A stretch of 64,000 bases of DNA from an uncultured Candidatus Saccharibacteria bacterium (GCA_964450805.1 CAYVDD010000001.1:134595-198594); one strand, 5' to 3'; positions 15,560 through 63,895 are shown, numbered from the stretch's first letter. Numbers and translations: made by a program. Notes: a model not told the origin generated them from the letters alone.

Positions 15560-16000
15560 ATGGCTGAAGAAAAAAAACAAGAAGAAAAAAAAGAAGAGGA
15601 AAAAGTCAAGGTTCCGGCAAAGTTCAAGAAACTTGTAGAGGAGATTGAAAAAATGAGTGTTTTGGATTTAGCAGAATTAGTAAAAATTCTTGAAAAGAAA
15701 TTCGGTGTTTCAACTGCCCCTCAAATGGTAGCTGCTGCTCCTACTGCTCCTGCTGGAGGAGCTGCTCCTGCAGAAGAAAAATCAAAATTTAATGTTGTTT
15801 TAACTGCTGTTGGAGACAAAAAGATTGAAGTAATTAAGACTGTAAGAGATACTACCCAAAAAGGATTAAAAGACTCAAAAGATTTGGTTGATGCTGTTGC
15901 TTCAGGAGAACAGATGATTAAAGAGAATGTTAAGAAAGAAGAGGCAGAAGAAATTAAAAAGAAGTTTGAAGCAGTTGGTGCTAAAGTAGAATTAAAATAA
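15560..16000 (+). CDS. rplL: 50S ribosomal protein L7/L12 with a K/E-rich N-terminal extension
   Basis: [19 protein letters not shown], an Ala/Pro hinge, and the C-terminal domain [24 protein letters not shown]...[18 protein letters not shown]. Confidence 0.92.
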
Positions 16001-16001
16001 T

Positions 16002-17192
16002 TTAAATTTCTTGCTTAATTTTAGCTGGAAATTCAGGAAAAAAGCCCTGTTTATCCCAATAAGGGTCTGCTGTTATAAATCTTTTATTACAGAACAGCTC
16101 ATAAATATGAAGGGGCTTTTTTTCTTTTTTCGGAGTTATCTCTATTTTACTGCATTTTACGCAGTATTTAATTGTGCAGGCTTGGTCACAGTGGCTACAG
16201 ATAAAAGATTCCACAAAATGAGAGCAGGCTGTGCGCAGCTCTTTTCTTTCCCTTCTTCTGCTCATTTGTTGCTCTTGTTTCTTTGATAGGGCTCTTTGAA
16301 GCTGTTCAAAAGAAGTTTCTTTTATTAGTTTGAATTTTTTACCGCTGTATTTTTGAAATAATATTTCCTGTTCTTTTTTATACTCATCAAAATTATTTGC
16401 GTTTGTTAGTTCAAATTCATTGAGTATTTTCATGAGTTTTGTTTGAAGTTTAGGGAATTCAGCATATCTTTCAACTAGGATTAAGCCATAGCTGGCTAGT
16501 TTAGGTCTGCTTGCTTTTTCAGCTTCTTTATTGTTTCTTTCTATCCACCAGCGCGGAAGATAAATGGTTTCTACTTTTTCTTCAATAAAAAATCTGATTA
16601 ATCTGATTGTTCCATAAGGGCTTGTTATCAGTCTGCCATAGTCATAGCGTACTGTAGGCGGATTGTTAACTGTGAGCATTGCAACTGAATTTATAGTGTC
16701 TCTGTGCGCTTTATCAGTATGATAAAGAAACCATTGCTTTTCTTCTGGAACCAGGATTACTTCATTAATAGTCATTTCTCTTGTTTCCAGGATTTTCCTA
16801 ATCGTTCTTTCATTATTCAGACCACCTTTTATTAGCTCTATATCGCGGCTACTTAATTCAAAACCTGTTTTTTTTAGTTTTTCTTTTAGTTCTATAACTT
16901 TTTCATTTAAAAGAGTCAGGTTTTTTTTCTTTGTTCCAGTAAACGTAAGAATTAAATCAATATCAAGAGGTTTTTCCCAGGCATTTTCTATGGCTCTGTT
17001 TTTTTTAATCTTTTTTTCATTTTTAAGAATCTGACCTAAAATTGCTTTGGCAAAGCCTCCTTTGATAATTATGTTTTTTGTTGGAGCCAAAACCTCTAAG
17101 ACTTTAATAATCTTTTTTGGCAGTAATTTCATCATTTCTTTTTCATCTATTTCAATCCTTGAGATTTTTCGTTTTAGAGGTATTAAATGCAT
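16002..17192 (-). CDS. Divergent class-II nucleotidyltransferase (CCA-adding/poly(A) polymerase head-domain-like) with a C-terminal Cys-rich tail
   Basis: GGFAKAILG...DIDLI resembles motif A (GGxVRD...DxD) with an insertion. TREMTINEV, ~70 aa further on, resembles motif B RRDxTINA. The tail is CSHFVESFICSHCDQACTIKYCVKCS. Confidence 0.45.
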   Translation of the reverse strand: MHLIPLKRKISRIEIDEKEMMKLLPKKIIKVLEVLAPTKNIIIKGGFAKAILGQILKNEKKIKKNRAIENAWEKPLDIDLILTFTGTKKKNLTLLNEKVIELKEKLKKTGFELSSRDIELIKGGLNNERTIRKILETREMTINEVILVPEEKQWFLYHTDKAHRDTINSVAMLTVNNPPTVRYDYGRLITSPYGTIRLIRFFIEEKVETIYLPRWWIERNNKEAEKASRPKLASYGLILVERYAEFPKLQTKLMKILNEFELTNANNFDEYKKEQEILFQKYSGKKFKLIKETSFEQLQRALSKKQEQQMSRRRERKELRTACSHFVESFICSHCDQACTIKYCVKCSKIEITPKKEKKPLHIYELFCNKRFITADPYWDKQGFFPEFPAKIKQEI

Positions 17193-17306
17193 AGTTTCTT
17201 TGTCTTTTGTTGTTATATTATAGTAATAGAATTTATTAAAGTAGGCTTATTTGATTGTTCTAAAAATATTTGTTAATAAGAAGTTTTTTTATATAGAAAC
17301 AGTCAA

Positions 17307-31633: not shown

Positions 31634-31780
31634 ATTATTAACAGAAAGCTTTGTTTAAATAAGTTCTAACATTGTTTGTCTCTCTGAGTTTTTGAAGCTG
31701 AGATTTTTCTTGAATTTGACTTTTTATAAGAAATTAATAATATATCTTAATCAGAAAGAATTTGTTCTTTGATAAAAAAA

Positions 31781-36764: not shown

Positions 36765-36836
36765 GGCCCCATCGTCTAGCGGCCAGGACGCCTGGTTCTC
36801 AACCAAGTAACAGGGGTTCGATTCCCCTTGGGGCCA
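36765..36836 (+). tRNA. tRNA-Glu (anticodon CTC)
   Basis: Aligns position-by-position with the bacterial tRNA-Glu architecture. Acceptor ggcccca/tggggcc. D region gtctagcggccaggac. Anticodon loop ttCTCaa. T arm agggg-ttcgatt-cccct. Confidence 0.8.
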
Positions 36837-36906
36837 CAATTGTATAAAATTAATGTAATTATATAGAAAAATCGCCAGAAAGGCGTTTTTTTGATAAAAT
36901 AAAAAT

Positions 36907-37482
36907 ATGAAAAAGATATTCTTCGTTACTTCCAATAAAGGTAAATATAGTTCTGCTAAAGCTTTTTTAAAGAAATACGGAATTGAAGTTGTTCAAAAGA
37001 GCTTAGAAATTCCTGAGTCTCGTGGCAGTTTTGAAGAGATTGCAGGACAGAAAGCAAGATTTGGATATAAAATCTTAAAAAAACCTGTCATAGCAATGGA
37101 TGCTGGTTTTTTTATTCATTCTCTTGATGGATTCCCAATGATGTTCACTAATTTTGTTCTTGGAACAATTGGTGTAGAAGGAATTATTAAACTTGTTAAA
37201 AATAAAAATAAGTCTTGCGAATTTCGAGAGGTACTTTCTTATTGTGACGGCCCCAGAGCAAAACCAAAGTTATTCAAACGGGTGGTTAAGGGTAGAATTT
37301 CTAATAAACCTCTTGGCAAGGTAAAACCGTATCATTGGTCTGAGCTTGCTTTGATTTTTATTCCTGAGAGAGAAAAAAGAACAATGGCAGAAATGACTAA
37401 GAAAGAGTTTATGAATTTTCGCAAGCGGGTTGATAATAATTCTCATTGGGAAGATTTTGGTAAATTTTTCTCAAAAGCTTAA
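36907..37482 (+). CDS. Non-canonical purine NTP pyrophosphatase (RdgB/HAM1 family-like)
   Basis: FVTSNKGK, EIPESRGSFEEIAGQKA and AMDAGFFIHSLDGFP parallel the ITPase motifs. The ATG lies 6 nt after TGaTAAAAT. Confidence 0.65.
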   Translation: MKKIFFVTSNKGKYSSAKAFLKKYGIEVVQKSLEIPESRGSFEEIAGQKARFGYKILKKPVIAMDAGFFIHSLDGFPMMFTNFVLGTIGVEGIIKLVKNKNKSCEFREVLSYCDGPRAKPKLFKRVVKGRISNKPLGKVKPYHWSELALIFIPEREKRTMAEMTKKEFMNFRKRVDNNSHWEDFGKFFSKA

Positions 37483-37570
37483 AATTATTGAAAATCTAAA
37501 CTAGTATTCAGTTCTAACTATTTATTATATCTGTCTTTTTTTTGTTTGGCTTTTAAGTTAAAATATTTCA

Positions 37571-48549: not shown

Positions 48550-49413
48550 ATGGATAGATTATGTCCTGAATGTGGCGATCAATCTCTAATAAAAAAAGAC
48601 GGTCAAACCGTTTGTAAAGAATGCGGTTTTGTGGTTTCATATAAAGAAATAGATTGCAAGGGAGGTACAAGACAAAAAGACGATGTTCCAAAATATCCTG
48701 TGAGCGTTATGGGTTATAATAAAAAATTAGGGAGCTATATTGATAGAAGAAATATTGATTCTTCAGGAAAAGAAATTATTCCTAAAACGCAGCTCACAAT
48801 AACAAGGTTACGAAATTATGATAGCAAATTCAAAAGTAGTGAAGAAAGGAAGCTACAAGCTGCAATGGTAGAGTTTAATCAACTTCTCCGTGAAATCTCA
48901 CCTGAAATTAGAATCACAAATACGTTTAAAAAAGAATTTAAGTTCTTTTTTAAAAAAGTTTTAGAAAAAGTTAGTGTTATCGGTAGAAGCTATAAGCTAC
49001 TGGGAGCAGCTACTTTTTGCTTTCTTTATAAGAAAAAAGGAAACCCAAATCCGATAAAACAAATTTCGAAGCTCACTAAAATCGCATTGGGATCTATTTT
49101 CAGACAGTATAGGAATTTGACTAGAATATTTGAGCAAAAGAAGCAACCTCAAAGCTTTGTAAATTATATTTCTAGTGTATCAGCAACTATAGGTATTTCT
49201 ATGAAAACTCAAAAAACAGCATTAGAGATATTTGCTAAGATAAAAAAAGATTTTTCAGGTAAAAGCATAAAAGGGGTAATAGCAGGTCTTTTATATCTTC
49301 TTTGTAAGATTAATGGAGAAGAAAAAACACAAGAAGAAATAGCAAAAGCCAGTAGTGTAGCTGTAGTGACATTACGAAGTCGACTCAAAGATTTAATTGA
49401 AAAAGATTTATAA
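48550..49413 (+). CDS. TFIIB/TFB-like protein (N-terminal zinc ribbon + linker + two cyclin-like repeats)
   Basis: MDRLCPECGDQSLIKKDGQTVCKECGFVV is a TFIIB-type Zn ribbon. SGKEI...RLRNYDSK...EERKLQAAMVEFNQL parallels the B-linker (RLRKWQ...ERNL). GRSYKLLGAATFCFLYK...IFRQYRNLTRIF and GKSIKGVIAGLLYLLCKINGEEKTQEEIAKASSVAVVTLRSRLKDL parallel cyclin repeats 1 and 2. The match is colinear with archaeal TFB. Confidence 0.75.
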   Translation: MDRLCPECGDQSLIKKDGQTVCKECGFVVSYKEIDCKGGTRQKDDVPKYPVSVMGYNKKLGSYIDRRNIDSSGKEIIPKTQLTITRLRNYDSKFKSSEERKLQAAMVEFNQLLREISPEIRITNTFKKEFKFFFKKVLEKVSVIGRSYKLLGAATFCFLYKKKGNPNPIKQISKLTKIALGSIFRQYRNLTRIFEQKKQPQSFVNYISSVSATIGISMKTQKTALEIFAKIKKDFSGKSIKGVIAGLLYLLCKINGEEKTQEEIAKASSVAVVTLRSRLKDLIEKDL

Positions 49414-50112: not shown

Positions 50113-51237
<1,125 letters not shown>

Positions 51238-51243
51238 TTATAT

Positions 51244-51314
51244 TGCGGGGTCGTCTAATGGTAGGACAAGCGCCTTTGAAGTGCTCGATCTAGGTTCGAA
51301 TCCTAGCCCCGCAG
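51244..51314 (+). tRNA. tRNA-Gln (anticodon TTG)
   Basis: Acceptor tgcgggg/ccccgca. Anticodon stem agcgc/gtgct with loop ctTTGaa. T arm ctagg-ttcgaat-cctag. No encoded CCA. Confidence 0.8.
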
Positions 51315-51323
51315 CTAGCCTAA

Positions 51324-51375
51324 GCGCGGTTCGAGAGACCGAGATGTGTCGGTTCGAATCTTGACGCCAGAGCAG
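51324..51375 (+). other. Decayed tRNA T-arm / 3'-half-like remnants immediately downstream of tRNA-Gln
   Basis: cGGTTCGAGAgaccgag and gtcGGTTCGAATCttgacgccagagca contain T-loop consensus sequences but no complete cloverleaf. Confidence 0.5.
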
Positions 51376-51422
51376 GTTTTAGCTCGCCAATGTATTTTTT
51401 ACAAAAATGAAATAATAAAAAT

Positions 51423-52094
51423 ATGATAAAAGCTATATTTTTTGATTGGGGTAATGTCTTTGAGACACTCCCGAAAGAAAGGGAAAATAAATTAGATGTA
51501 ATCCTAAAACCTTTTGGATTTACTTGGGAGAATTTCCATCCATATTGGAGACAGTTTTATCTTTTGAGGTCAGCTGGGAAGATAACAACCGATAGAGATT
51601 TTGAAATTTACATAAGGAGAGTTTTGCAAAAAAGCATACCCGTAAAAAAAATCATTAAAATCACCATTGATTGCCATATAATTCCTAAGGATCATATTAA
51701 AGTCGTAAAGGAGTTAAAAAAGAAATATAAAGTAGGAGTTTTATCCAATTACGTTGAGGGGTGGATAAAACAGGTTCTTAAAAATTATAGGATCGAAAAT
51801 TTATTTGATTCTCTTACTATTTCTTCGGCAGTCGGAGAAAGAAAACCAAATGCTAAGATTTATTACGAAGCATTAAAGAAATTAGCCGTAAAGCCGAAAG
51901 AATCAGTTTTTGTCGCCGATGAGGTGGCAGAGGATTTAGTTGTGGCAAGCGGTTTGGGAATGAAAACTATTTGGTTTGATACAAAGGCAAAAGGATGGTG
52001 GGGCAAAGACGATAGGGATATTCTAAAGATCTATAAACCAGATGCAACTGTTAAAAATCTTAGAGAAGTTATTGGCACAGTCGAAAGGATGTAA
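51423..52094 (+). CDS. HAD-superfamily hydrolase
   Basis: MIKAIFFDWGNVF (motif I), VLSNY (motif II), ERKPNAKIY and FVADE. Confidence 0.75.
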   Translation: MIKAIFFDWGNVFETLPKERENKLDVILKPFGFTWENFHPYWRQFYLLRSAGKITTDRDFEIYIRRVLQKSIPVKKIIKITIDCHIIPKDHIKVVKELKKKYKVGVLSNYVEGWIKQVLKNYRIENLFDSLTISSAVGERKPNAKIYYEALKKLAVKPKESVFVADEVAEDLVVASGLGMKTIWFDTKAKGWWGKDDRDILKIYKPDATVKNLREVIGTVERM

Positions 52095-52116
52095 AGTTTT
52101 TGGTAGAGTAAATAAT

Positions 52117-52233
52117 ATGATGAGGAAAATTATAGGATTAAAAAGAAAAAAAGTTAGGCTTCTTTCCTATAATCCAGTGTGGAAAAACTTATATGCAAAA
52201 GAAGTAAAATTACTTCGTTCTGTTATAGGATAA
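52117..52233 (+). pseudogene. N-terminal fragment of a GrpB-family (UPF0157) gene, truncated at a cassette boundary
   Basis: MMRKIIGLKRKKVRLLSYNPVWKNLYAKEVKLLRSVIG resembles GrpB N-termini (V.L..YdP.W...F..E...L). It stops after 38 aa, right at ggataatGGTTCTAAC. Confidence 0.5.
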
Positions 52234-52358
52234 TGGTTCTAACGTTGTTCACAATGTCCAACAACATATAATATAATGTCTTTAAATTGGCGAAATTTAC
52301 TTAAGATTGCATATTTCAAAGCAAAAGAAAGCGCTAATCCATCCACCCAGAATGGAGC
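52211..52358 (+). repeat. Duplicated segment A-left (boundary motif, promoter and 5' part of the dCMP deaminase gene); partner at 56507-56653
   Basis: By-eye alignment is near-identical from ggataatggttctaac through cccagaatggagc. Confidence 0.85.
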
Positions 52359-52764
52359 TGTTTTGATTAATGACAAAGGAGATATCATTCTTTCTGCGGT
52401 AAATAGTTTTCCAGAAGGAGTAGCAAGAACTCAAGAGCGAAACGTTAAGCCCTTACGTTTTAAATTCAGCGTACATGCAGAACGTAATGTGATTTTTCAA
52501 GCTGCAAGGCTTGGTATAAAAACAAAAGGACTTACTATGGTATGTCCATGGGCAGCATGTAGTGATTGTGCTCAGGCCATAATTCAAGCAGGTATTAAAC
52601 GATTAGTAGTCCACAAACAAGCCCTTAATAGATCTAGTAGATGGCAGGAGAACATAGAACTTGCTTTTGCTATGCTTCGCGAAGCTAGGGTTAAAATTAT
52701 TATTTTTGACGGTAAGATAGGGGTGGGTAAGATTTTACGAAGCAAAGAATTTTGGAATCCATGA
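52276..52764 (+). CDS. dCMP/CMP deaminase (ComEB-like, zinc-binding)
   Basis: VHAERN (the HAE zinc/catalytic motif) and CPWAACSDCA (CxxC). Confidence 0.8.
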   Translation: MSLNWRNLLKIAYFKAKESANPSTQNGAVLINDKGDIILSAVNSFPEGVARTQERNVKPLRFKFSVHAERNVIFQAARLGIKTKGLTMVCPWAACSDCAQAIIQAGIKRLVVHKQALNRSSRWQENIELAFAMLREARVKIIIFDGKIGVGKILRSKEFWNP

Positions 52765-52840
52765 TAGATGAACTTATTTTTTTTATTAAACTTGTATAAA
52801 AGAGATTCTAACCTCGTCCAGTCCCCGGAGTTATTTTGCC
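52574..52840 (+). repeat. Duplicated segment A-right (3' part of the deaminase gene + downstream boundary); partner at 56654-56921
   Basis: The coding part is almost identical; I saw one mismatch (cgattagtag vs cgattggtag). The flank is more diverged. Confidence 0.85.
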
Positions 52841-52876
52841 GAGATTGTTTCTCGAGTTCTTGTTATAATGGAGTAT

Positions 52877-53428
52877 ATGAAAATAACAAAGCGAGAGACA
52901 GTTTATAAGGGTAAATTCATAAAAATTGTGGCTAAGCATTTTGAGAGAGAAAACGGAAGAAAAGGAATATGGGAGACATTAGAAAGAATTATCCCCCAAA
53001 AGAAAGCAGTAGTAGTTTTTGCCCTAACTAAAGACAAAGAAGTAATTTTAGAAAAAAGCTATAGAATTCCATTTGAGTGTTATGTTTTAGAGCTTCCTGC
53101 TGGTCTTTGTGATAAAGAGAACGAAAGCGAAAAAGAAGTGGCTAAAAGAGAGCTTTTAGAAGAGACAGGTTATAAAGCAAAGGAACTTATTCGCATTTTC
53201 TGCACTACAGGCGATATGGCTTTAACAGACTTAGAAATAGTTTATTTTTTTGCTCCTGACGTTGAATTTATAGGGAATATAAATAAGGATGATGCAGAAG
53301 AGATTGAGGTAGTTAAAGTTCCTCTTGAACAACTGGTTGATACAGCCATCAATCCTCCTCAAGGAATTAAAATAAGCTTTGATCTACTATCAGTTTTACC
53401 AGTTTTACGAAAGAAAGATTTGATATAG
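52877..53428 (+). CDS. NUDIX hydrolase (ADP-ribose pyrophosphatase-like)
   Basis: ELPAGLCDKENESEKEVAKRELLEETGY Nudix box. The ATG at 52868 overlaps the -10 TATAAT (52864-52869). The ATG at 52877 lies 7 nt after it. Confidence 0.78.
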   Translation: MKITKRETVYKGKFIKIVAKHFERENGRKGIWETLERIIPQKKAVVVFALTKDKEVILEKSYRIPFECYVLELPAGLCDKENESEKEVAKRELLEETGYKAKELIRIFCTTGDMALTDLEIVYFFAPDVEFIGNINKDDAEEIEVVKVPLEQLVDTAINPPQGIKISFDLLSVLPVLRKKDLI

Positions 53429-53586
53429 TTGCTTTTTAGTTAACTTTTGATCAAACAGGTTCTAATATCGTCCGTCCCTCGGAGAGTTCGAGACCTGTTA
53501 GCCTGAGGCGGTAGTGCAACCTGAAGGCGTAGTTTAGGGACTCGCTCAAAGAGCGGTTTTTTGGTAGAATGGTTTAATATAAAAAT

Positions 53587-54228
53587 ATGATTTCATTTGT
53601 ATATTTTGATTTAGGTGGAGTTGTGGTGAGGGATCTTTATGAAGCAGATAAATGGACTGATATGAAGCGTGATATTGGAATAAAAGTTGAAAGTGACAAA
53701 GAATTCGATCGGTTTTGGGAGAAGCATGAAAAAGAAGTTTGTACAGCAGATAAAGATGTCGACACGTTAATTCCTTTACTTGAAAAGAAATTTCATTTGA
53801 GTTTTCCTGCTGGCTTTTCAATATTAGCGGATTTCGTCAGTAGATTTGAACCGAATAAAGAAATTTGGCCAGTTCTTGAGAGAATTAAACAAGATTGTAA
53901 GATTGGTCTCTTGACTAATATGTATCCGCGAATGTTCTCTGCCATAACGGAAAAAGAAATTATGCCTCCAGTTACTTGGGATGTGATTATTGATTCCAGT
54001 ATTGAGGGTTGCCGAAAACCAAATTCAGGTATTTTTGAACTTGGTGAGCAAAAAGCCGATGTTAAGAAGGATAATATATTATTTATAGACAATAAAATTA
54101 AGAATATAAATGCGGCCAAGGATTTCGGTTGGCAAACTTTTTTCTATGATATTGGAGACCATAAAGAATCCTGTTTCGAACTTTTACATTATTACAATCA
54201 AAAAAAAAGTGCAAAGGTTGTTAAATAA
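53587..54228 (+). CDS. HAD-superfamily hydrolase
   Basis: MISFVYFDLGGVVV (motif I), LLTNM, CRKPNSGIF and FIDNK. Confidence 0.72.
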   Translation: MISFVYFDLGGVVVRDLYEADKWTDMKRDIGIKVESDKEFDRFWEKHEKEVCTADKDVDTLIPLLEKKFHLSFPAGFSILADFVSRFEPNKEIWPVLERIKQDCKIGLLTNMYPRMFSAITEKEIMPPVTWDVIIDSSIEGCRKPNSGIFELGEQKADVKKDNILFIDNKIKNINAAKDFGWQTFFYDIGDHKESCFELLHYYNQKKSAKVVK

Positions 54229-54358
54229 ATAATCAAATATAGAATTGAATATAATTGTATAGAGAATTGCCAGAAAGGCGATTCTAGTGCTCGGTATCGG
54301 GAGACCGAGACGCGTCACATGTGTTATAATAAAAAAGATTATTAAACCTAAAATAATT

Positions 54359-55258
54359 ATGCAAAATAAAGCCTTTTCTAAAATATTAGTTTTAATTATT
54401 CTCGTTGTTATCATTAGTGGAGGGATTTTGATTTCTCAGAAAGTATCACCAGTGGCCGCACTTGATGAGTCAAATCCCTGGCTATTTATTCCAGTTGGTG
54501 ATGATTACATGGTAATCCATGAAGGACAATCAGGGATTGTTGAATATAAAGAGGGGACAAAAATTCAAGTAAATGGTTTTAATCTCGGTAAGGTTGAATT
54601 TCGGGCTACTTCCATAGAAGGTGAGGAAAATATTCTAATAGGAACTGCTGTAAAAAGAGAGAAAGCATATCTGGAAGAAAAAGGAGAGTCTTGGTTTTTT
54701 ACTTTTCCCTCTAACCAAACTATATCTAATCTTCTAGCCATCGCCTTTGATTCAAAAGGAAATGAAGCTGGAAGAATTAATTTTCCGTATTTTGAGAATG
54801 TCACAAAAGAAGAAAGGGAAGAAATTGCTAACTGGAAAACTTATAGCAACGAAAAATATGGATATGAGATAAAATATCCAGCTCATTATACAGCAAAAGA
54901 ATCTGACCAAGGAAAGAGTTTAATTATAGGAACCCGTGTTATATATTGTTACAGTATTTCAATCACAGAAAATGTTTCTTCTTTGGAAGAATTAAAATCT
55001 TCATGGCAGGATTCATTTGATGAATTACTTGGAAAATCTCCTAAACGTCCAGAAATAGAAGTAACCTGGAAAGACACATTGGTTTCCGGGGAAAAAGCAA
55101 TAGAGAGGAGTTATGAGCAGTTTATTGGTGGATACACGGGCATCACTCATTCCACCGGCGTTATAAAAGATTCTACCGCTTATGGAATTAAGTTACAAAA
55201 TGGTTCGGAAGAAGAATATTATAAAATCCTTTCTACTTTTAGTTTTTTGGTATTATAG
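54359..55258 (+). CDS. Hypothetical N-terminally anchored/secreted protein
   Basis: The start MQNKAFSKILVLIILVVIISGGIL (signal anchor) was chosen. A TGtTATAAT promoter lies at about 54327-54335. Confidence 0.5.
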   Translation: MQNKAFSKILVLIILVVIISGGILISQKVSPVAALDESNPWLFIPVGDDYMVIHEGQSGIVEYKEGTKIQVNGFNLGKVEFRATSIEGEENILIGTAVKREKAYLEEKGESWFFTFPSNQTISNLLAIAFDSKGNEAGRINFPYFENVTKEEREEIANWKTYSNEKYGYEIKYPAHYTAKESDQGKSLIIGTRVIYCYSISITENVSSLEELKSSWQDSFDELLGKSPKRPEIEVTWKDTLVSGEKAIERSYEQFIGGYTGITHSTGVIKDSTAYGIKLQNGSEEEYYKILSTFSFLVL

Positions 55259-55283
55259 TCCCGATATGTGATAAAATAAAAAT

Positions 55284-55595
55284 ATGCTAAAGATAAATTC
55301 AATAGAAAAGATTTATTTACTGTTCGGGTTAAGTATTCTTTCTGTCATTCTGCATAATGCTATTTCGGCTTATTTCAAGATTGAAGAGCCAGTATTTTTC
55401 ATTTTGACTTTTCTTTTTCTTCTTGCTTTCGTTATTTCCGTCATTTACTACACAGTTTCTTATATCAAGAAAGGGGAGCCGAAAGATTTGTGGAAAATCG
55501 GCTTTTTGGGACTACTCGGATTATTTGGATTGGTCGCCAGTCCTGGTTTCTACGGTCTTTTCGGTCTATTCGGATTTTTCGGAGCAAGAAATTGA
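55284..55595 (+). CDS. Hypothetical small membrane protein with a C-terminal GLFG-repeat segment
   Basis: Two TM helices, then GFLGLLGLFGLVASPGFYGLFGLFGFFG. Confidence 0.45.
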   Translation: MLKINSIEKIYLLFGLSILSVILHNAISAYFKIEEPVFFILTFLFLLAFVISVIYYTVSYIKKGEPKDLWKIGFLGLLGLFGLVASPGFYGLFGLFGFFGARN

Positions 55596-55605
55596 AGAGG
55601 CATAA

Positions 55606-55657
55606 AAAATGAGACACCGTGAGACACCCTTAAATATTGTCTCATTTGTCTCATTTT
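55606..55657 (+). terminator. Ornate terminator hairpin built from TGAGACA heptads
   Basis: aaaaTGAGACAccgTGAGACA (5' arm) pairs with TGTCTCAttTGTCTCAtttt (3' arm). A fifth TGAGACA copy lies at 55690-55696. Confidence 0.55.
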
Positions 55658-55830
55658 AGCTTCAAAACGCCCCGACCGAGGCGGGTTGATGAGACAACTC
55701 AAAAAGGTCCAAATTACTCTTTAAAATCTCGGTTCTAGACCGAGGATGCCAACACTCAATTTTGAACTCAAAATTAATTAGCTCCCATGAAAGATAGAAC
55801 TCTTTGGTATTTTTTGATAAGATAAAAAAG

Positions 55831-56484
55831 ATGATAGTCCAAATTTACGAAATTAGCACTCCTCTAGAAGCAATAAATATAGCAGAATTAGGTGTAGATC
55901 ATATAGGGGTTTTGGTGGGAAAAGGTAAGTATCCTCGTGAATTACCAATTGAAAAAGCAAAGCTGATTTTTCAATCACTACCGCCTAATGCTAAGAGTGT
56001 TGTTTTATCTTTATCAAATGATTTGGCAGAAATATTTGAAATTATTGAGCAAATTAAGCCAGATATACTTCATTTGGGGAGTGATGAAAAGATGCTTTCC
56101 ATAGATAAAGTAAGGGAGATCAGAAAAAAATATTCCAAATTGAAAATAATGAGAACTATTGCAGTGATAGACGAGAATACTATAAAACTCGCAAAAGAGT
56201 ATGAAACCATCGTTGATTATTTGCTTTTGGATACTTATAAGTCTCAACTTGGAGCTACTGGAGAGGTTCATAATTGGGATATAAGTAGAAAGATAGTAAA
56301 TTCAGTTAAGATTCATGTTATTCTGGCTGGCGGTTTGGGAATTGACAATGTAGCTGATGCTATTAGAAAAGTTAGACCAACAGGCGTGGATTCAAAAACA
56401 AAAACAGATAAAATTGGTAGTCACGAAAAAGACATTGAAAAGGTAAAAGAGTTTGTTAAAATTGCTAAATCGCAACTACGATAG
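55831..56484 (+). CDS. Phosphoribosylanthranilate isomerase (TrpF)-like TIM-barrel protein
   Basis: LLDTYKSQLGATGEVHNWD, ILAGGLGIDNVADAI and RPTGVDSKTKTD parallel the TrpF motifs. The ATG lies 7 nt after TGaTAAGAT. Confidence 0.65.
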   Translation: MIVQIYEISTPLEAINIAELGVDHIGVLVGKGKYPRELPIEKAKLIFQSLPPNAKSVVLSLSNDLAEIFEIIEQIKPDILHLGSDEKMLSIDKVREIRKKYSKLKIMRTIAVIDENTIKLAKEYETIVDYLLLDTYKSQLGATGEVHNWDISRKIVNSVKIHVILAGGLGIDNVADAIRKVRPTGVDSKTKTDKIGSHEKDIEKVKEFVKIAKSQLR

Positions 56485-56572
56485 ATTAATTATTGGTATA
56501 TAAATATACTTATTCTGTTGTAGGATAATGGTTCTAACATTGTTCACAATGTCCAACAACATATAATATAAT

Positions 56573-56844
56573 GTCTTTAAATTGGCGAAATTTACTTAAG
56601 ATTGCATATTTCAAAGCAAAAGAAAGCGCTAATCCATCCACCCAGAATGGAGCAGGCCATAATTCAAGCAGGTATTAAACGATTGGTAGTCCACAAACAA
56701 GCCCTTAATAGATCTAGTAGATGGCAGGAGAACATAGAACTTGCTTTTGCTATGCTTCGCGAAGCTAGGGTTAAAATTATTATTTTTGACGGTAAGATAG
56801 GGGTGGGTAAGATTTTACGAAGCAAAGAATTTTGGAATCCATGA
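56573..56844 (+). pseudogene. Second copy of the dCMP deaminase gene with a 215-bp internal deletion (frameshifted, catalytic motifs lost)
   Basis: Identical start MSLNWRNLLKIAYFKAKESANPSTQNGA, then the junction gagc|aggcc (56653/56654) joins to the equivalent of 52574, out of frame, with TAA after 9 more codons. The HAE and CxxC regions are deleted. Confidence 0.8.
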
Positions 56845-56985
56845 TAGATGAACTTATTTTTTTTATTAAACTTGTATATAAAAAAGGTTCTAACTTTGTC
56901 CAATCCCGAAGTTATTTTGCCCAAATAATTGATATTGACAAATATAAGAATATAATTATAATAATAGATAATTCTTTAACAAAAA

Positions 56986-57282
56986 GTGAAAAAATTGATT
57001 GAAAAAGAAAATATACTTTTTTGTATATTATACCTAGAAGGAGAAGATAACGAGGATTTACTAAAAAAAATAAAAGATAAAGGAATTGAAAAAATTACGA
57101 AAATCATAAAAATAGGATGGGATTTACATTATATTAATCGCATTGGAATACTAGAGATTCAAGGCTTTATAGAACCCCCTGTTTTGATAGCGGGACTTCT
57201 ATTAAAAGAGGAGAAAAAAGCTCACGAACTTTGTCTTTACCGCGGCTCTAAGATTTGGCTTTTTATCAACAGCATAAAATAA
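56986..57282 (+). CDS. Hypothetical protein (98 aa, GTG start)
   Basis: Preceded by a perfect TTGACA-16-TATAAT promoter (about 56935-56962). I recognise no family. Confidence 0.4.
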   Translation: MKKLIEKENILFCILYLEGEDNEDLLKKIKDKGIEKITKIIKIGWDLHYINRIGILEIQGFIEPPVLIAGLLLKEEKKAHELCLYRGSKIWLFINSIK

Positions 57283-57431
57283 TTTTTAAATTATTATTAA
57301 TTTTTAAAATTTATTTTTTTAAAAAACAAAAAACTAATAAATGAGGGAATGAAAAAGTTTTATGCCCTCTTATTTTTTTTAAAAAAAGATTGATTTTTGA
57401 GATTGATTTAGATAATATAAAAAACAATCAT

Positions 57432-57887
57432 ATGTCAAAATATCTAACCCTAGAAGGGCTGAAAAAAGTAAAAAAAGAATTGGATTACTTAATAAATGTG
57501 GAAAGAAAGGAGATTGCAAAGAGGATAAGGCATGCTGCTTCTTTTGGCGATCTTAGTGAAAATGCTGCTTATGATGAAGCAAAAGATGCCCAGGGATTCT
57601 TAGAAGAAAAAATCCGCAGATTAAAGAAAGTCTTGTCTCAAGCTCAAGTAATAAAAAAAGAAAAGAGCGGAAAAGTACAGATTGGCTCTATAGTTTATCT
57701 AAAATCAGAAAATAACAAAAAACAAAAATTCCAAATTGTAGGATCAGAAGAGGTTGATATTATGAAAGGAAGAATATCTCAAGAATCACTTATAGGAAGC
57801 GCTCTCTTAGGTAAATCCAAAGGAGAAAAGATAAAAATTAAAACACCTGAAGGAAAAATAGAGTATGAAATTCTTGAAGTTGAATAG
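57432..57887 (+). CDS. greA: Transcription elongation factor GreA
   Basis: MSKYLTLEGLKKVKKELDYL...FGDLSENAAYDEAKDAQ and the C-terminal FKBP-like domain. The ATG at 57432 was chosen. Confidence 0.9.
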   Translation: MSKYLTLEGLKKVKKELDYLINVERKEIAKRIRHAASFGDLSENAAYDEAKDAQGFLEEKIRRLKKVLSQAQVIKKEKSGKVQIGSIVYLKSENNKKQKFQIVGSEEVDIMKGRISQESLIGSALLGKSKGEKIKIKTPEGKIEYEILEVE

Positions 57888-57927
57888 TTATGACAATAAA
57901 GAAATAGAGGAATAAATTGATAGTACA

Positions 57928-60855
57928 ATGGACTCATCATTACTCAATAATTTAAATCAACAGCAGAAACAAGCGGTTATTCATGACAAAGGACCGCTTT
58001 TAATTGTAGCAGGAGCTGGGACAGGTAAAACCACAGCTATTACAAAAAGAATTGCTTATTTGATTGAGCAAAAAAAAGCTAAACCAGAAGAAATTCTAGC
58101 AGTTACTTTTACTGATAAAGCAGCTGGTGAAATGGAAGAAAGAGTGGACAGGCTGCTGCCTTATGGATATATAGATTTGTGGATATCAACTTTTCACTCT
58201 TTTTGCGAGAGAATCTTAAGAGAACATGCTTTAGATATTGGTCTGTCAACTGATTTTAAATTATTAGACCCTACAACAGCCTGGATGCTGATTAACCAGA
58301 ACTTAGAAAAGTTTAACCTTAATTATTATCGTCCCTTGGGAAACCAAACCAAGTTTATCCATGCTTTAATAAGTCATTTTTCCCGCTGTAAAGACCAGGG
58401 TATTTATCCCCAAGATTATTTAAAATATGCAGATAGTTTGAAAACTAATCTTACTGATTTAAAAGAATCCAAGGAAACAGAAAGATTAAAAGAAGTGGCT
58501 GGAGCTTATCATGTTTATCAAAGGCTGCTTTTGGAAAACAATTCTTTGGATTTTGGAGACTTGATTAATTATTGCTTAAAGCTGTTCCAGGACAGACCTC
58601 TTATTTTAGACAAATTCAGAAATAAGTTTAAATACATTCTGGTTGATGAGTTTCAGGATACTAACTGGGCTCAATATGAATTAATTAAATTATTAGCTTT
58701 GCCTGAAAATAATCTTACGGTTTGCGCTGACGATGACCAGGCAATTTATAGATGGAGAGGCGCTTCTTATAACAACATTATTCAATTTCAAAAAAACTTT
58801 CCAAAAACAAAAGAAATTTTTTTAATTGAAAATTATCGTTCAACTCAAAACATATTAGATTTATCATATAAATTCATTAAAACTAATAACCCAAATCGTC
58901 TGGAATATATCAGTAAAATAAGTAAGAAATTAAAAGCTAATAAAACAGGCGAGGGGATTATAGAGCATTTACACTTTAAAGATTTATATGAAGAAACACA
59001 GGGAGTGATTAATAAAATTGCTGACATAGTTAAAGAAAATAAAGATGTTTGTTTTGGTGATTTTGCAATCTTAGTCAGGGCTAATAATCATGCCAATGCT
59101 TTTACCAGAGCTTTAGAAAGAGCTAACTTTCCTTATCAGTTCTTAGCATCCAGAGGATTGTATTCTAAAACAGTTATTTTAAATATAATTTCTTATTTCA
59201 AGCTCTTAGATGATTACCATGAAAGTCCTGCTTTATACAGAATTCTGAATCTTCCTTTCTTAAATATTCCAACAAAAGATATTGCAAAGATCAACCAGTA
59301 TGCCAAGCGTAAAACAAAATCTTTATACGAAGCTTTAAATGAGCTTCCCCTCATACACGGTGTTTCTCCTTCATCTGGACAAGCAGTTAATTTGATATTA
59401 AGCCTGATTAAAAAACACACTGAATTATCTAAAAATAAAAATGTTTCAGAGGTTTTAGTTTCGTTTTTAAAAGATTCAGGTTATCTGAAATACTTATCAG
59501 GCAAAGAAAACAAACAGCAAATAGATTTAATCAATCAGTTTTATCAAAAAATAAAAAATTTTGAAGAAGTTAATATAGACGCTTCTCTTAAAAGCTTTAT
59601 GGAAAGTTTAAATATGGAGATTGAATCAGGTGAACAGGGTAAGATCAGTTTTGATATAGAGCAAGGTCCGGACATGATCCGGGTTATGACCATTCATTCA
59701 GCTAAAGGTCTGGAGTTTAAGTATGTGTTTTTAGTTAATCTGGTTGACAGAAGATTTCCAACTTCACAACGTAAAGAACCGATTGAAATACCAGAAAATT
59801 TAATTAAAGAAATTATTCCAGAAGGTGATGTTCATTTAGAAGAAGAAAGAAGGCTTTGTTATGTAGCAATGACCAGAGCTAAAGAAAAATTATTTTTAAC
59901 TTCTGCTGATAATTATGGCGGAGTTAGAAAGAAAAAACCTTCCAGATTTTTAATGGAAATGGGTTTTATTAAAAAGGGCGATGAACTGATTGCAAAAAAT
60001 ATAGAGTCAGTTGCTGTGAGAAAACAGAAGAAAAAAATAACTGTTCCTTTAAATTTACCCCCTTATCTTTCATTCTCGCAAATAGCAGCTTTTGGAAAAT
60101 GTCCTTTGCAGTATAAATTTGCCCATATATTGAAAATTCCAATAAGAGGCAAGGCAGTGTTTTCATTTGGAAAAGCAATCCACAACACCTTATATGATTT
60201 TGTAAGACTGACTGACAGCGGAAAGAATGCTGTTCAGTCTGCTTTATTTGGAACAGATAAACAAAAAGAACAAAAAACAGGAAAAAAAGTTTTAAACCTG
60301 TCTGATTTAGTTGAATTGTATAAAAAAAACTGGATTGATGACTGGTATGAATCAAAAAACCAGAAACAAGAGTATTACAAATTAGGCCAGAAAATAATTA
60401 AAGATTTTTATGATAAATTTATTCAAGAACAACCTAAAATCTTCAGGATTAATAAAGAGCCAGCCTTAGAAGTACAGTTCAGATTTAAGACAGCTGGCAA
60501 CACCTTATTTGGCAAAATAGACAGAATAGATGAAATTAAAGATGGAATTGAAATAATAGATTATAAGACCGGGAAATACAAAGAAAAATTATCTTCTGAA
60601 GATAAACAACAGCTTTTAATCTATCAGATGGCAGCTGAACAGGCTTTGGGTTTGAAGCCTGTAAAACTTAGTTATTATTATTTAGAACAAGGCAAAAAAA
60701 CTTCATTTTTGGGAAGCGAGCAGGATAAAGAAAATCAAAAACAAGAGATAACAGCTATAGCTAAAAAGATAAAAAACAGCAGTTTTGATGCTAATCCAGG
60801 CTGGCAATGTAAATTTTGTGATTTTCAAGATATTTGTGATTATGCTCAGAAATAA
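57928..60855 (+). CDS. UvrD/PcrA/AddA-type ATP-dependent helicase fused to a C-terminal PD-(D/E)XK (Cas4/RecB-like) nuclease domain
   Basis: AGAGTGKT, VDEFQDTN, TIHSAKGLEF and YVAMTRAK helicase motifs. The C-terminus has CPLQYKF ... IDYKTGK ... CKFCDFQDIC (iron-sulfur-type Cys). Confidence 0.85.
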   Translation: MDSSLLNNLNQQQKQAVIHDKGPLLIVAGAGTGKTTAITKRIAYLIEQKKAKPEEILAVTFTDKAAGEMEERVDRLLPYGYIDLWISTFHSFCERILREHALDIGLSTDFKLLDPTTAWMLINQNLEKFNLNYYRPLGNQTKFIHALISHFSRCKDQGIYPQDYLKYADSLKTNLTDLKESKETERLKEVAGAYHVYQRLLLENNSLDFGDLINYCLKLFQDRPLILDKFRNKFKYILVDEFQDTNWAQYELIKLLALPENNLTVCADDDQAIYRWRGASYNNIIQFQKNFPKTKEIFLIENYRSTQNILDLSYKFIKTNNPNRLEYISKISKKLKANKTGEGIIEHLHFKDLYEETQGVINKIADIVKENKDVCFGDFAILVRANNHANAFTRALERANFPYQFLASRGLYSKTVILNIISYFKLLDDYHESPALYRILNLPFLNIPTKDIAKINQYAKRKTKSLYEALNELPLIHGVSPSSGQAVNLILSLIKKHTELSKNKNVSEVLVSFLKDSGYLKYLSGKENKQQIDLINQFYQKIKNFEEVNIDASLKSFMESLNMEIESGEQGKISFDIEQGPDMIRVMTIHSAKGLEFKYVFLVNLVDRRFPTSQRKEPIEIPENLIKEIIPEGDVHLEEERRLCYVAMTRAKEKLFLTSADNYGGVRKKKPSRFLMEMGFIKKGDELIAKNIESVAVRKQKKKITVPLNLPPYLSFSQIAAFGKCPLQYKFAHILKIPIRGKAVFSFGKAIHNTLYDFVRLTDSGKNAVQSALFGTDKQKEQKTGKKVLNLSDLVELYKKNWIDDWYESKNQKQEYYKLGQKIIKDFYDKFIQEQPKIFRINKEPALEVQFRFKTAGNTLFGKIDRIDEIKDGIEIIDYKTGKYKEKLSSEDKQQLLIYQMAAEQALGLKPVKLSYYYLEQGKKTSFLGSEQDKENQKQEITAIAKKIKNSSFDANPGWQCKFCDFQDICDYAQK

Positions 60856-61096: not shown

Positions 61097-61280
61097 GTAT
61101 TAAGATCACGATTTAAGCTTTAAATAAAGCCTATTCGAAACGTTTAAAATTTATAATTGAACGACCTTTCGATTACTAAGTCGTTCTATTTTAAATATTT
61201 CGACTTATAATCTAATAATAAAACAATAGCATATTGTTTTTAAAAGGTCAATAGCTCTTTGAGCAAGGGATAAATAGGTA

Positions 61281-61482: not shown

Positions 61483-61517
61483 AAAAAATCGCCCTAAGGG
61501 CGGTTTTTTGTTATAAT
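61483..61517 (+). terminator. Terminator fused to an extended -10 promoter (module family)
   Basis: aaaaaaTCGCCCtaaGGGCGGttttttGtTATAAT. Confidence 0.65.
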
Positions 61518-62534: not shown

Positions 62535-62696
62535 ATGACAAATACTTTTTTAATGCAAGATGAACAACCTCAGGCTCCTAAGCAAGAAACAGGGAGTGAG
62601 ACACCAGATACTGGAACTGAAGCCCCAAAACCTGAAACTGAAACTCCGAAGACTGGAAGCGAAGAAGGTAAGGAAGAAGATAAGAAGGAAGGCTGA
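62535..62696 (+). CDS. Candidate 53-aa acidic, P/T/E-rich micropeptide
   Basis: My translation is MTNTFLMQDEQPQAPKQETGSETPDTGTEAPKPETETPKTGSEEGKEEDKKEG. It ends upstream of the terminator at 62722-62745, whereas the overlapping basic ORF 62560-62754 runs through that terminator. Confidence 0.4.
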   Translation: MTNTFLMQDEQPQAPKQETGSETPDTGTEAPKPETETPKTGSEEGKEEDKKEG

Positions 62697-62721
62697 GTTG
62701 AATAAATTTAGAACCAGAAGA

Positions 62722-62745
62722 AGCGCCATAATAGGTGCTTTTTCT
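62722..62745 (+). terminator. Rho-independent terminator
   Basis: AGCGCCataataGGTGCTttttct. Confidence 0.55.
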
Positions 62746-62866
62746 AATATTTAAAATAAAGATTAAAGGTGGTTTTTGAATAGCAAACATAATCTTATAT
62801 TAACCTTTAATATTGTGCGACATTTATTGGAGAAAGGAAACCACTAGGGTAGAGAACTAGTGTTTT

Positions 62867-63895
62867 TTAGTCTTTTAACTTTTTACCACTATGAAATTTA
62901 CGGTGAATGTTTCTCAGGCGCTTACTTGTTACATGAGTATAGATTTGGGTTGAAGTAATACTTCTGTGACCTAAAAACTCTTGAATAGTTCTTAAATCAA
63001 CACCTTGGTTTAAAAGGTCAGTTGCCATGGAATGCCTAAGTGTGTGCGGAGTAGTAAAAACAGGAATTCCAGCTAAAACTGCATACTTCTTAACTAATCT
63101 CTGAATGGAACGAGAGGTGAGTCGACTATCTGATCCTTTCTTGGCTCTATAATGAATGAATAGAGCTTTTTCTTTATCTTTACGTGAATCTAAATATTTT
63201 TTAATCCAACTCAATGCTCTTTCTGAAAAATACACTGTTCTAGCAGATCCGCCTTTGCCAATAACTGAAAGTTCTAAGTCTTTCTTTTTTTTGATATTAT
63301 AGAATTGCTCTTTGTTCAAAGCAACAAGTTCTGCAATTCTCAAACCTGTTGAAAATAATGACTCTAAAATAACCTTATCTCTTAAGCCAATTCTGGTGTT
63401 ATGGTTAGGGGATTTTAAGAACTTTTCAATCTGTTCTAAGTTAAGGAATTTAATGGCTTTATCCTTTTTAGCGTCCTTGGGAAGCTTTATCTTGTCTGCA
63501 GGCAATGATTGTATGTCTTTGGCTGAAAAATAGCTTAGAAAGGCTCTGAGAGCGATAAGATAGTAGTTCTGGGTGATTTTCTTTAAGTTCTTGCCTTTAT
63601 TAGTGTTAAAGCGGGATAGGAATAAGCGATATTTCCATACATTATCAGCTGTAAATTGATGGGGTAGTAATTTTTCATTTTTTGTCTTTTTCAGCCAAAA
63701 TTCAAACTTATTTAAATATCTCTTATAATTCTCCTGGGTTTTATTAGACAAACCTTTCTCAACTTCACAATAATCTAAAAAATCAAAAATATGGCTTATT
63801 ATTGGTGTCTTTGATTTTTTCATTTTTTTAAGGATTTTAGGGAAGTGGTCTAATTTATATATACTAAACGTCGCTTTACCATCATTGTGCGACAT
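62867..63895 (-). CDS. Tyrosine recombinase / integrase (XerC/XerD-like)
   Basis: N-terminal SAM-like domain, then RDKVILESLFSTGLRIAEL (catalytic R), HTLRHSMATDLL (HxxR) and LGHRSITSTQIYTHV (H...Y). Confidence 0.88.
   Translation of the reverse strand: MSHNDGKATFSIYKLDHFPKILKKMKKSKTPIISHIFDFLDYCEVEKGLSNKTQENYKRYLNKFEFWLKKTKNEKLLPHQFTADNVWKYRLFLSRFNTNKGKNLKKITQNYYLIALRAFLSYFSAKDIQSLPADKIKLPKDAKKDKAIKFLNLEQIEKFLKSPNHNTRIGLRDKVILESLFSTGLRIAELVALNKEQFYNIKKKKDLELSVIGKGGSARTVYFSERALSWIKKYLDSRKDKEKALFIHYRAKKGSDSRLTSRSIQRLVKKYAVLAGIPVFTTPHTLRHSMATDLLNQGVDLRTIQEFLGHRSITSTQIYTHVTSKRLRNIHRKFHSGKKLKD

Follow-up and report, generated by a model that had tools for sequence, protein, structure and literature searches.

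Small gene cassettes downstream of a tRNA-Gln gene in a parcubacterium-related genome are bounded by a tRNA-derived 33-nt motif, a probable recombination junction

The DNA analyzed here is a stretch of 64,000 nt (the window; GCA_964450805.1 CAYVDD010000001.1:134595-198594, with positions counted from its first letter) listed under an uncultured Candidatus Saccharibacteria bacterium. It has a G+C content of 31.5%, and its closest relatives are metagenome-assembled genomes of Candidatus Nealsonbacteria and other Parcubacteria. A tRNA-Gln(TTG) gene lies directly 3' of dnaX, a pairing that is kept in L001, L002, and many other of the loci compared here (designated by L numbers). The DNA from this tRNA to ~57.3 kb appears to be an array of small, individually promoted gene cassettes, which would have arisen through site-specific recombination at the 3' end of the tRNA gene. 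Across the larger collection of loci, a cassette typically ends in a 33-nt motif, M1. The motif and the geometry of the arrays are conserved, the arrays are anchored at tRNA genes whose 3' ends resemble the tails of the motif, related genomes are hypervariable at this place and differ at sharp junctions, and one cassette is found in two contexts. It is quite probable that the M1 and tRNA sites are, in general, recombination junctions of mobile cassettes; from the same observations we infer the enzyme, the position of the crossover, the order of insertion, and the movement of single cassettes. A preceding reading made by a model from the DNA alone (the sequence-only reading) had taken the units to be single genes, inserted serially and site-specifically at a tRNA 3' end and arranged as a cassette array rather than an island; the comparative data support all of this.

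M1 consists of AAACAGGTTCTAACATCGTCC followed by a 12-nt tail. When public metagenome contigs were scanned with an 18-mer containing two degenerate positions, at least 120 stretches matched, and a census that allowed three mismatches gave at least 248 copies in at least 127 Parcubacteria loci. Among the matches listed, many stretches hold two to seven copies on one strand, all copies of a multicopy locus share the same strand (62 of 62 loci), and neighboring copies are a median of 843 bp apart; in L185, 5.9 kb hold 11 copies. Among the same matches, the longest open reading frame (ORF) lies on the strand of M1 in 113 of 119 intermotif intervals, one gene is found in 80 and two genes in 27 of 126 intervals, and the distance from the stop codon to the start of M1 has a median of 46 nt. 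In the metagenome contigs selected by the motif, the tRNA genes near an array (Gln, Asn, His, Leu, Glu, and Thr/Gly) lie on its upstream side and point the same way, barring a few exceptions. The cassette ORFs (n = 113) match 105 different Pfam families, NUDIX being the commonest (n = 8). The information content of M1 is high from position -3 to +29 and zero at +30; therefore, M1 is a one-sided site with a sharp edge.

Loci that were chosen by dnaX alone (80 loci) are free of M1 upstream of dnaX (583 kb), and their downstream DNA (457 kb) holds 15 copies, each of them on the dnaX/tRNA strand; in these distant genomes, a longer conserved motif, aaaCAGGTTCTAACATCGTCC followed by ~12 bases, is found 3' of dnaX and the tRNA. 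In the window, an nhmmer search with a profile built from 242 copies of other genomes recovered three clear and two degenerate copies of M1, all on the + strand, intergenic, 3' of genes, and within 4.7 kb after tRNA-Gln. The tRNA-Gln gene that the sequence-only reading placed at the head of a same-strand array was found at that position by both ARAGORN and Rfam. The pattern GRTTCKARY, which it regarded as the boundary signal, is enriched in the window (12 observed versus 5.9 +/- 2.3 expected), with 6 of the 12 sites being on the + strand between 52235 and 56894; GTTCTAAC is found 6 times versus 1.5 expected. Seven boundary motifs had been listed. Those at 52794, 53446, and 56875 are good M1 copies (profile E values of 6e-7, 6e-8, and 4e-4), and those at 52235 (E of ~1) and 56530 (E of ~0.3) represent a single degenerate M1 that was duplicated along with the deaminase gene and thus are not independent. 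The remaining two (54280-54309 and 55728-55744) belong to another element, the M2 hairpin CTCGGT..ACCGAG. Thus, a clear M1 closes three units of the window, the single degenerate copy and its duplicate close two, and another two have the M2 hairpin only.

M1 corresponds to the 3' half of a tRNA: it comprises AGGTTCKAA of the T-arm, the 3' strand of the T-stem, the 3' strand of the acceptor, and the discriminator, with five additional nucleotides, CATCG, inserted into the T-loop between the first block and the rest. In the L047 alignment, CCTGGTTCGAA-----TCCAGGTCCCGCAGC of tRNA-Gln stands against ACAGGTTCTAACATCGTCCAGTTCCCGGAGC of M1. The description of the boundary motifs as tRNA 3' halves was therefore right in kind, and its register was off because M1 carries this insertion. 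When compared with tRNA genes, as had been suggested, the tail is similar to the last 14 nt of the anchoring tRNA, with a mean of 7.8 of 14 matching positions, versus 5.8 of 14 for tRNAs of other isotypes, and with 11 to 12 of 14 in six loci. As in tRNA-targeting elements, the tRNA is intact, and M1 is a modified tRNA 3' half with an anchor-like tail. In L193 and L002, the similarity runs from the M1 tail into the tRNA's own downstream flank. Canonical displaced tRNA fragments are found in L111, L200, L099, and L115, as well as in the window, where the fragment GGTTCGAATCTTGACGCCAGAGCA at 51351-51374 bears out the T-arm remnant reported 3' of tRNA-Gln.

A tRNA half found behind genes might also be an RNA element of the 3' untranslated region (UTR), serving as a tRNA-like tag for processing, stability, or termination, in which case the array would be a set of genes that share it. 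Such a role is consistent with M1 sharing the orientation of its upstream gene (113 of 119 intervals), at a median of 46 nt past the stop codon, and with the presence of a terminator-like hairpin downstream of M1 in 139 of 250 copies, which means that M1 would be transcribed. However, such a hairpin lies upstream of M1 in 52 of 250 copies, the core and tail fold with 0 to -6 kcal/mol into no common structure, and the constant 5' strand ACAGG shows no covariation with the variable 3' strand. In an Rfam search of 51200-57400 with E values up to 10, tRNA was the sole match. The RNA hairpin or T-arm fold was rejected for the lack of covariation; with no common fold and no Rfam family either, M1 resembles a site in DNA more than a structured RNA. 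Further, M1 is missing from the 583 kb upstream of dnaX and from the other genes of the window and therefore is not a general UTR signal, and the junction polymorphism and the tail-to-flank similarity in L193 and L002 are signatures at the DNA level. The UTR explanation is accordingly given very little weight, and a purely RNA-level role of M1 is unlikely.

The array resembles integrons in its co-oriented, mostly single-gene units of diverse functions, with a site just 3' of the stop codon and a content that varies among relatives, so a classical integron or a CALIN (cluster of attC sites lacking an integrase) has to be considered. The start of M1, GTTCTAACAtcGTcCA, presumably resembles the R''-L'' side of aadA-type attC sites. 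In contrast to integrons, there is no inverted L'/R' partner downstream, so that the attC hairpin cannot form; promoters and terminators are part of the cassettes; a tRNA takes the place of attI as the anchor, and the site itself is tRNA-derived; and no integron integrase (IntI) is found, the sole tyrosine recombinase of the window being a generic XerC/D-like protein. The attC reading of M1 was rejected for its lack of dyad symmetry, and an integron in the strict sense is extremely unlikely. Of the integron-style likeness put forward in the sequence-only reading, the cassette organization holds; M1 itself is not an attC-like hairpin.

The DNA that follows M1 is organized as well. The usual order is M2, which is a T-arm-like palindromic element, a terminator of conserved sequence (ATCGCC..GGCGGTTTTTT), and the -10 box of the next gene (GGTAGAAT or TATAAT). 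M2 is co-oriented with M1 in a ratio of 53:9; in the form seen in the window, it is also found 3' of tRNA-Gln in L002, L018, and L111 and 3' of M1 in many cassettes. The string CTAGTG..GAGACCGAG, as in the M2 at 54283-54309, stands behind M1 tails in L090, L121, and L146; in L200, it comes after a displaced tRNA 3' fragment adjoining tRNA-Gln. A fused form of the terminator (ATCGCCaa..aGGCGGTTTTTT) and the -10 box (GGTAGAAT) recurs in distant genomes, co-oriented with M1 in a ratio of 72:1; examples are found in L106, L157, L164, L172, and L191 and in the window at 61488-61509 and 53542-53568.

As the sequence-only reading had proposed, cassette content was compared among related genomes, and it proved hypervariable from the tRNA on. 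L001 is the closest relative (DnaX 89% identical) and runs collinearly with the window up to 51356 and again from 60849 (blastn). The first breakpoint falls in the T-loop of the displaced tRNA fragment, and the 9.5 kb that the window holds between the two positions compares with 1.1 kb in L001, which contains two motif-like sites. L002 (DnaX 84% identical) is collinear to 51344, the end of M2, and then unrelated for more than 10 kb. Thus, homology of the window to L001 and L002 stops 30 to 40 nt after tRNA-Gln. A sharp junction is seen in L047, L083, L104, and L153, which are 85 to 97% identical to the last base of a tRNA-Asn 3' fragment (..CCCGCGGAGC) and wholly different from the next base; their postjunction sequences recur 3' of M1 tails in other arrays. 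A cassette with a 64-codon ORF, ~90% identical in L140 and L145, lies between two M1 copies in both, with unrelated outer flanks. Among 220 M1 sites, 31 cross-contig pairs share one flank and none share both (+/-350 nt; the test is blunt, as cassettes are short).

Homology between contigs starts within 10 nt of the M1 core start in 27 cases versus 3 for random positions, and it often continues through the shared terminator/promoter module. This would also be expected from homologous recombination after natural transformation, with M1, M2, and the terminator-promoter module acting as short anchors, similarly to the minimal mobile elements of Neisseria. Bacteria of the Candidate Phyla Radiation (CPR) are thought to be competent. 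A duplication in the window adds to the case for such exchange: 52218-52358 and 52573-52801, from the deaminase cassette, recur at 56513-56881 with 99% identity, and the duplicated segment stops at the 5' edge of M1, not at the predicted crossover. It could be due to gene conversion or to duplication with the motifs as bounds. At precisely the 5' edge of the M1 that follows (52801 / 56881), the identity of the two copies falls to ~75%, and the left edge is 17 nt before GGTTCTAAC of the degenerate M1. However, anchors of 20 to 33 nt are near the lower limit of RecA-dependent exchange, and homologous recombination leaves unexplained the tRNA-half nature of M1, its anchor-tracking tail, the placement of the arrays only 3' of co-oriented tRNAs, the sharp edge at +30, and the presence of M1 at the attP position of serine recombinase genes. 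It is, on balance, an unlikely source of the arrays.

Several other differences between the genomes were noted. Right of the variable region, a pyruvate kinase gene is extra in L001 (12764-14282 versus window positions 61258-61262), and a two-gene block is extra there in otherwise collinear DNA (15974-18113 versus 62639-62791). In L002, ~65 nt that follow tRNA-Gln (M2 and the terminator; 11205-11275) are repeated directly after M1 (15335-15400), the repeats bracketing a 4-kb insert in which an Mrr-like nuclease and a UDG-like gene are found; a C-terminal gene fragment at 15062-15295, PurM-like by eye only, ends 12 nt before this M1. In an exact look-up of five window proteins, DnaX alone was on record, in Logan contig SRR14802572 (L202). 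This is the only public contig with an identical DnaX, and it stops at window position ~52274, within the duplicated segment of M1 and deaminase, where a repeat that interrupts short-read assembly would be expected to end it. A scan of viral contigs with M1 gave one match, L081, where a GC-rich phage-like contig (terminase, portal, and capsid) is joined to low-GC CPR-like DNA precisely where an M1 tail ends (14690-14819, minus strand; ..CCCGGAGCC|TCACTGG); the join is either an integration junction or an assembly chimera.

The proposed enzyme is a tRNA-targeting large serine recombinase, because genes for such proteins sit exactly at these junctions in related genomes. In L007, L063, L064, and L059, genes for large serine recombinases that carry Resolvase, Recombinase, and Zn_ribbon_recom domains abut or overlap tRNA-Gln at their 3' ends, and in L047, a serine recombinase gene abuts the tRNA-Asn-fragment junction where sister genomes hold cassettes. 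In L126, L084, and the viral contig L203, M1 is found at the 3' end of the recombinase gene, in place of the tRNA; L203 was the one informative locus in scans of viral contigs with two serine recombinases. In the four tRNA-Gln loci, the recombinase frame is on the opposite strand and runs antisense through the whole tRNA-Gln gene (tRNA-Gln and recombinase, respectively, at 11108-11179 and 11119-12756 in L007, 5388-5461 and 5399-6886 in L063, 11726-11800 and 11708-13405 in L064, and 11721-11794 and 11677-13455 in L059). The last 20 to 30 residues of the recombinase (e.g., ..MLRGKDSNLDRLDQNQLSYH) are encoded by the tRNA complement, and the C terminus therefore varies with the state of the site.

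The half-sites of attP and attB for large serine recombinases share a distal 9-bp motif, which lies 5 bp nearer the center in attB (PMC3783163). M1 (AGGTTCTAA + CATCG + ...) and the tRNA (AGGTTCGAA + ...) fit this 5-bp offset rule at the level of sequence only, with spacers to the second 9-nt block beside the recombinase genes of 29 nt (M1 form) and 24 nt (tRNA form); the published spacers are 30 and 25 (PMC3783163). Because the offset and the spacers fit the attP/attB geometry, M1 is read as the element-side (P-type) half-site and the tRNA 3' half as the putative chromosome-side (B-type) half-site. The crossover would be in or beside the acceptor 3' strand, so that the last bases of M1 and the DNA after it would be whatever followed the tRNA at the time of insertion. 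The recombinase would act in trans, as the array in the window encodes none. This serine recombinase att-site model of the cassette array is considered somewhat likely.

A number of observations weigh against the model. The 64-kb window contains no serine recombinase gene or relic, the sole relic match being the antisense strand of tRNA-Gln itself, and in phmmer searches, no serine recombinase was found in 124 of the 127 motif-bearing loci listed, many of which are short contigs. Queries with the Xer and serine recombinases gave no match inside the arrays, and there is no recombinase among the listed Pfam families of the 113 cassette ORFs. The four recombinase-bearing tRNA-Gln loci lack M1 in 2 to 10 kb of downstream sequence. 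Serine integrase sites have two half-sites, but in the arrays there is no conserved second half-site to the right of M1, and the right 9-nt block beside the recombinase genes matches the inverted left block at 6 of 9 positions only. The attL and attR sites of serine recombinases are normally inert; therefore, the standard reaction does not account for successive insertions at the same tRNA, which would call for either a nonstandard reaction or a recombinase module that is lost every time. The deaminase duplication ends at the M1 5' edge and not at the inferred crossover. There is also no gradient of motif decay, the tRNA-nearest M1 copies being no better preserved than the distal ones, and a simple newest-first model with the newest cassettes nearest the tRNA was set aside for that reason. 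Finally, most M1 copies come from a scan that required an exact 18-mer, so the conservation of the core in them is partly by construction; the same core is seen in copies not selected in this way, i.e., the secondary copies in arrays and those at the dnaX loci.

Tandem accretion comes more naturally to tyrosine recombinases than to serine recombinases. The same cassette and att arrangement might be the work of a tyrosine recombinase, Xer-like or an unseen integrase, with the tRNA 3' end as the core site and M1 as the arm-proximal part of attP plus the core; the arrays would grow by accretion, since the products of such enzymes keep intact core sites. Tandem accretion with partial-tRNA repeats is the norm for tyrosine integrases at tRNA genes (bioRxiv 10.1101/2020.12.28.424599; Islander). 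The canonical displaced tRNA 3' fragments, the window/L001 breakpoint in the T-loop, and the short inverted repeats that many tails form with the end of the core (TCCC..GGGA and ATCGTC..GACGAT) are consistent with this possibility. So is the XerC/D-like gene 6 kb past the array, to which the sequence-only reading had drawn attention as the only recombinase and which is syntenic in L001. It is indeed the sole tyrosine recombinase of the window, but it is not linked to arrays elsewhere: it was the only tyrosine recombinase match among the ORFs of the 127 motif-bearing loci listed, in a search with the Xer query alone, which divergent integrases could escape. In the wider locus set, the syntenic L001 copy is its only close counterpart, L051 having a weak homologue. 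The inverted repeats are missing from many tail classes, the constant 5-nt insertion is left unexplained, and the recombinase genes at the junctions are all of the serine type. A tyrosine recombinase is therefore rather doubtful, and large serine recombinases are better candidates than the Xer-like gene. The idea that M1 is a dif/Xer site, suggested by ATGTTAGAA in its reverse complement, which we take to be like a XerD arm, was dropped, as there is no second arm and no Xer gene accompanies the arrays elsewhere.

The features of the window are listed in Table 1. Of the genes named by the sequence-only reading, the two HAD family hydrolases, the dCMP deaminase, the NUDIX hydrolase, and the PRAI/TrpF-like protein were recovered by Pfam, and the two "membrane/secreted" proteins are present without a Pfam match; one of them, encoded at 54359-55258, belongs to a family that ORF clustering finds in 6 motif-bearing loci among the matches listed. 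The deleted deaminase copy is also there. For the putative GrpB fragment, no match was found in Pfam with E values up to 1, in PDB sequences, or by tblastn against all loci. The greA and helicase-nuclease genes that follow the array are within the segment missing from L001, yet they adjoin an M1 in L182, where the region is 81.6% identical to the window and M1 is ~950 nt upstream.

Two more + strand genes had been noted for the same motif. The one at 31663 is a weak member of the M1 family, backed by homology of the upstream gene: the 190 nt upstream of it are 87% identical to a tRNA-Asn-adjacent cassette in L140. The one at 37511 is a remnant, GTTCTAAC, after a Ham1 (ITPase) gene directly 3' of tRNA-Glu; this second locus holds a single unit consisting of tRNA-Glu, a terminator/promoter module, the Ham1 gene, and the remnant. 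A tRNA-Glu followed by M1 is also found in L101 and L115. The cassettes of this genome (NUDIX, Ham1, dCMP deaminase, and HAD phosphatases) have nucleotide house-cleaning or salvage as a common theme. Elsewhere in the window, a 287-aa protein encoded upstream of GtrA and dnaX (~48550-49413; 8438-9301 in L202) has a Pfam TFIIB match in the precomputed annotation, which is unusual in a bacterium. A match to Rfam RF03531 (n00280, "C. difficile sRNA included into helicase gene") above the gathering score at 59812-59913, inside the UvrD/PcrA-like gene, probably reflects conserved helicase coding sequence.

Table 1. Features of the tRNA-Gln-anchored array and of related sites in the window
Feature	Position	Strand	Evidence or remark
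Weak M1 after 83-aa ORF	31656-31675	+	nhmmer E 0.95
tRNA-Glu / Ham1 one-cassette locus	36765-37518	+	
tRNA-Gln(TTG), array anchor	51244-51315	+	ARAGORN; Rfam 62 bits
Proposed attB-type half-site of tRNA-Gln, AGGTTCGAA + TCCTAGCCCCGCAGC	within 51244-51315	+	
M2, T-arm-like palindromic element after tRNA-Gln, GCGCGGTTCGAGAGACCGAG	51324-51343	+	read directly
Displaced, decayed tRNA 3' fragment, GGTTCGAATCTTGACGCCAGAGCA	51351-51374	+	read directly
Hypervariable segment versus closest relative	51356-60849	+	blastn of L001 and L002 versus window; tblastn of window proteins versus loci
Cassette gene 1, HAD family hydrolase	51423-52094	+	Pfam HAD_2, 7.8e-16
38-codon ORF fragment after cassette gene 1	52117-52233	+	no family match
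Degenerate M1, GGTTCTAACGTTGTTCAC..., overlapping deaminase promoter	52235-52265	+	nhmmer E 1.4
Promoter-like TTCACA-18-TATAAT of deaminase gene	52248-52277	+	
Cassette gene 2, dCMP/cytidine deaminase	52276-52764	+	Pfam dCMP_cyt_deam_1, 5.3e-17
M1 copy, gaGATTCTAACCTCGTCC + tail AGTCCCCGGAGT	52794-52834	+	nhmmer E 6.2e-7
Cassette gene 3, NUDIX hydrolase	52868-53428	+	Pfam NUDIX, 3e-12
Best M1 copy of window, caaaCAGGTTCTAATATCGTCC + tail GTCCCTCGGAGA	53446-53485	+	nhmmer E 6e-8
M2 remnant, then terminator (stem-loop and T-run)	after M1 at 53446-53485; stem-loop 53542-53556	+	
Cassette gene 4, HAD family hydrolase	53587-54228	+	Pfam Hydrolase, 7.4e-8
M2 element, TCTAGTGCTCGGTATCGGGAGACCGAG, no M1 before it	54283-54309	+	pattern match at 54297
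Two-gene unit	54359-55258 and 55284-55595	+	no Pfam or NCBIfam match
Perfect T-arm-like hairpin CTCGG-TTCTAGA-CCGAG, M2 type	55728-55744	+	read directly; not reported by M1 profile
PRAI/TrpF-like cassette gene	55804-56484	+	Pfam PRAI, 1.8e-17
Duplicate of degenerate M1 and deaminase cassette, 214-nt internal deletion, pseudogene	56513-56881	+	repeat search, 99% identity
M1 copy, aaaAAGGTTCTAACTTTGTCC + tail AATCCCGAAGTT	56875-56908	+	nhmmer E 3.8e-4
Strong promoter-like site of 98-aa ORF, TTGACA-16-TATAAT	56935-56962	+	
98-aa ORF, last unit before greA	56986-57282	+	no family match
greA and UvrD/PcrA-like helicase-nuclease	57390-60855	+	Pfam, NCBIfam
XerC/D-like tyrosine recombinase, generic	62867-63895		syntenic in L001

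Among known systems, the tycheposons of Prochlorococcus (bioRxiv 10.1101/2020.12.28.424599) come closest and are similar in that flexible genes gather beside a few tRNA genes of streamlined genomes, successive integrations push older elements away, partial tRNA copies are found at the boundaries, and a minority use a large serine recombinase. They differ in being multi-kb elements with their own integrase, usually replication genes, and plain partial-tRNA repeats, whereas the units described here are mostly single genes of ~0.3 to 2 kb without a recombinase, and a single 33-nt motif with a constant 5-nt insertion is common to distant genomes and different tRNAs. The sites of large serine recombinases share with M1 and the tRNA the distal 9-nt block (AGGTTCKAA) and the proximal block, offset by 5 bp, and genes for three-domain recombinases abut the sites in some other loci. 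However, the known sites are pseudo-palindromic, with two half-sites and inert attL and attR, whereas M1 in the arrays is one-sided and tandem, and in contrast to known serine systems, the recombinase frame here runs antisense through the tRNA or M1. To our knowledge, characterized serine integrases rarely target tRNA genes.

Cis-mobilizable elements (CIMEs) and integrative and mobilizable elements (IMEs) beside integrative and conjugative elements (ICEs) at the 3' ends of genes lack an integrase, are flanked by att sites, accumulate in tandem at one site, and rely on a recombinase in trans, much as is proposed for the array here. Such accretion involves tyrosine integrases and few large elements, as opposed to up to 11 sites in 5.9 kb (L185) and a single motif that is phylogenetically widespread. 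No relevant publication came up when the literature was searched for the motif string and for cassette or tRNA-island systems of CPR bacteria. Site-specific insertion targeted to tRNA genes is known, and gene-sized cassettes without a recombinase, bounded by one tRNA-derived 33-nt motif that distant CPR genomes and several target tRNAs have in common, are the distinctive feature.

If serine recombinases are responsible, the M1 and tRNA sites would be natural attP/attB pairs built on a tRNA gene, and their tandem arrays are not predicted by the current model of directionality. Parcubacteria, and with them the CPR, might then own a functional analogue of the integron, a tentative idea in which promoter-bearing single-gene cassettes with a 33-nt P-type half-site would be captured and released at the 3' ends of several tRNA genes by a large serine recombinase acting in trans, through a nonstandard reaction that tolerates an arbitrary second half-site and regenerates the target. 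The 33-nt motif could serve to find or PCR amplify the cassette pool of uncultured CPR bacteria, as attC primers do for integrons. CPR bacteria have tiny genomes and few recognized mobile elements, and little is understood of their exchange of accessory genes, part of which a conserved cassette platform anchored at tRNAs would, if true, account for.

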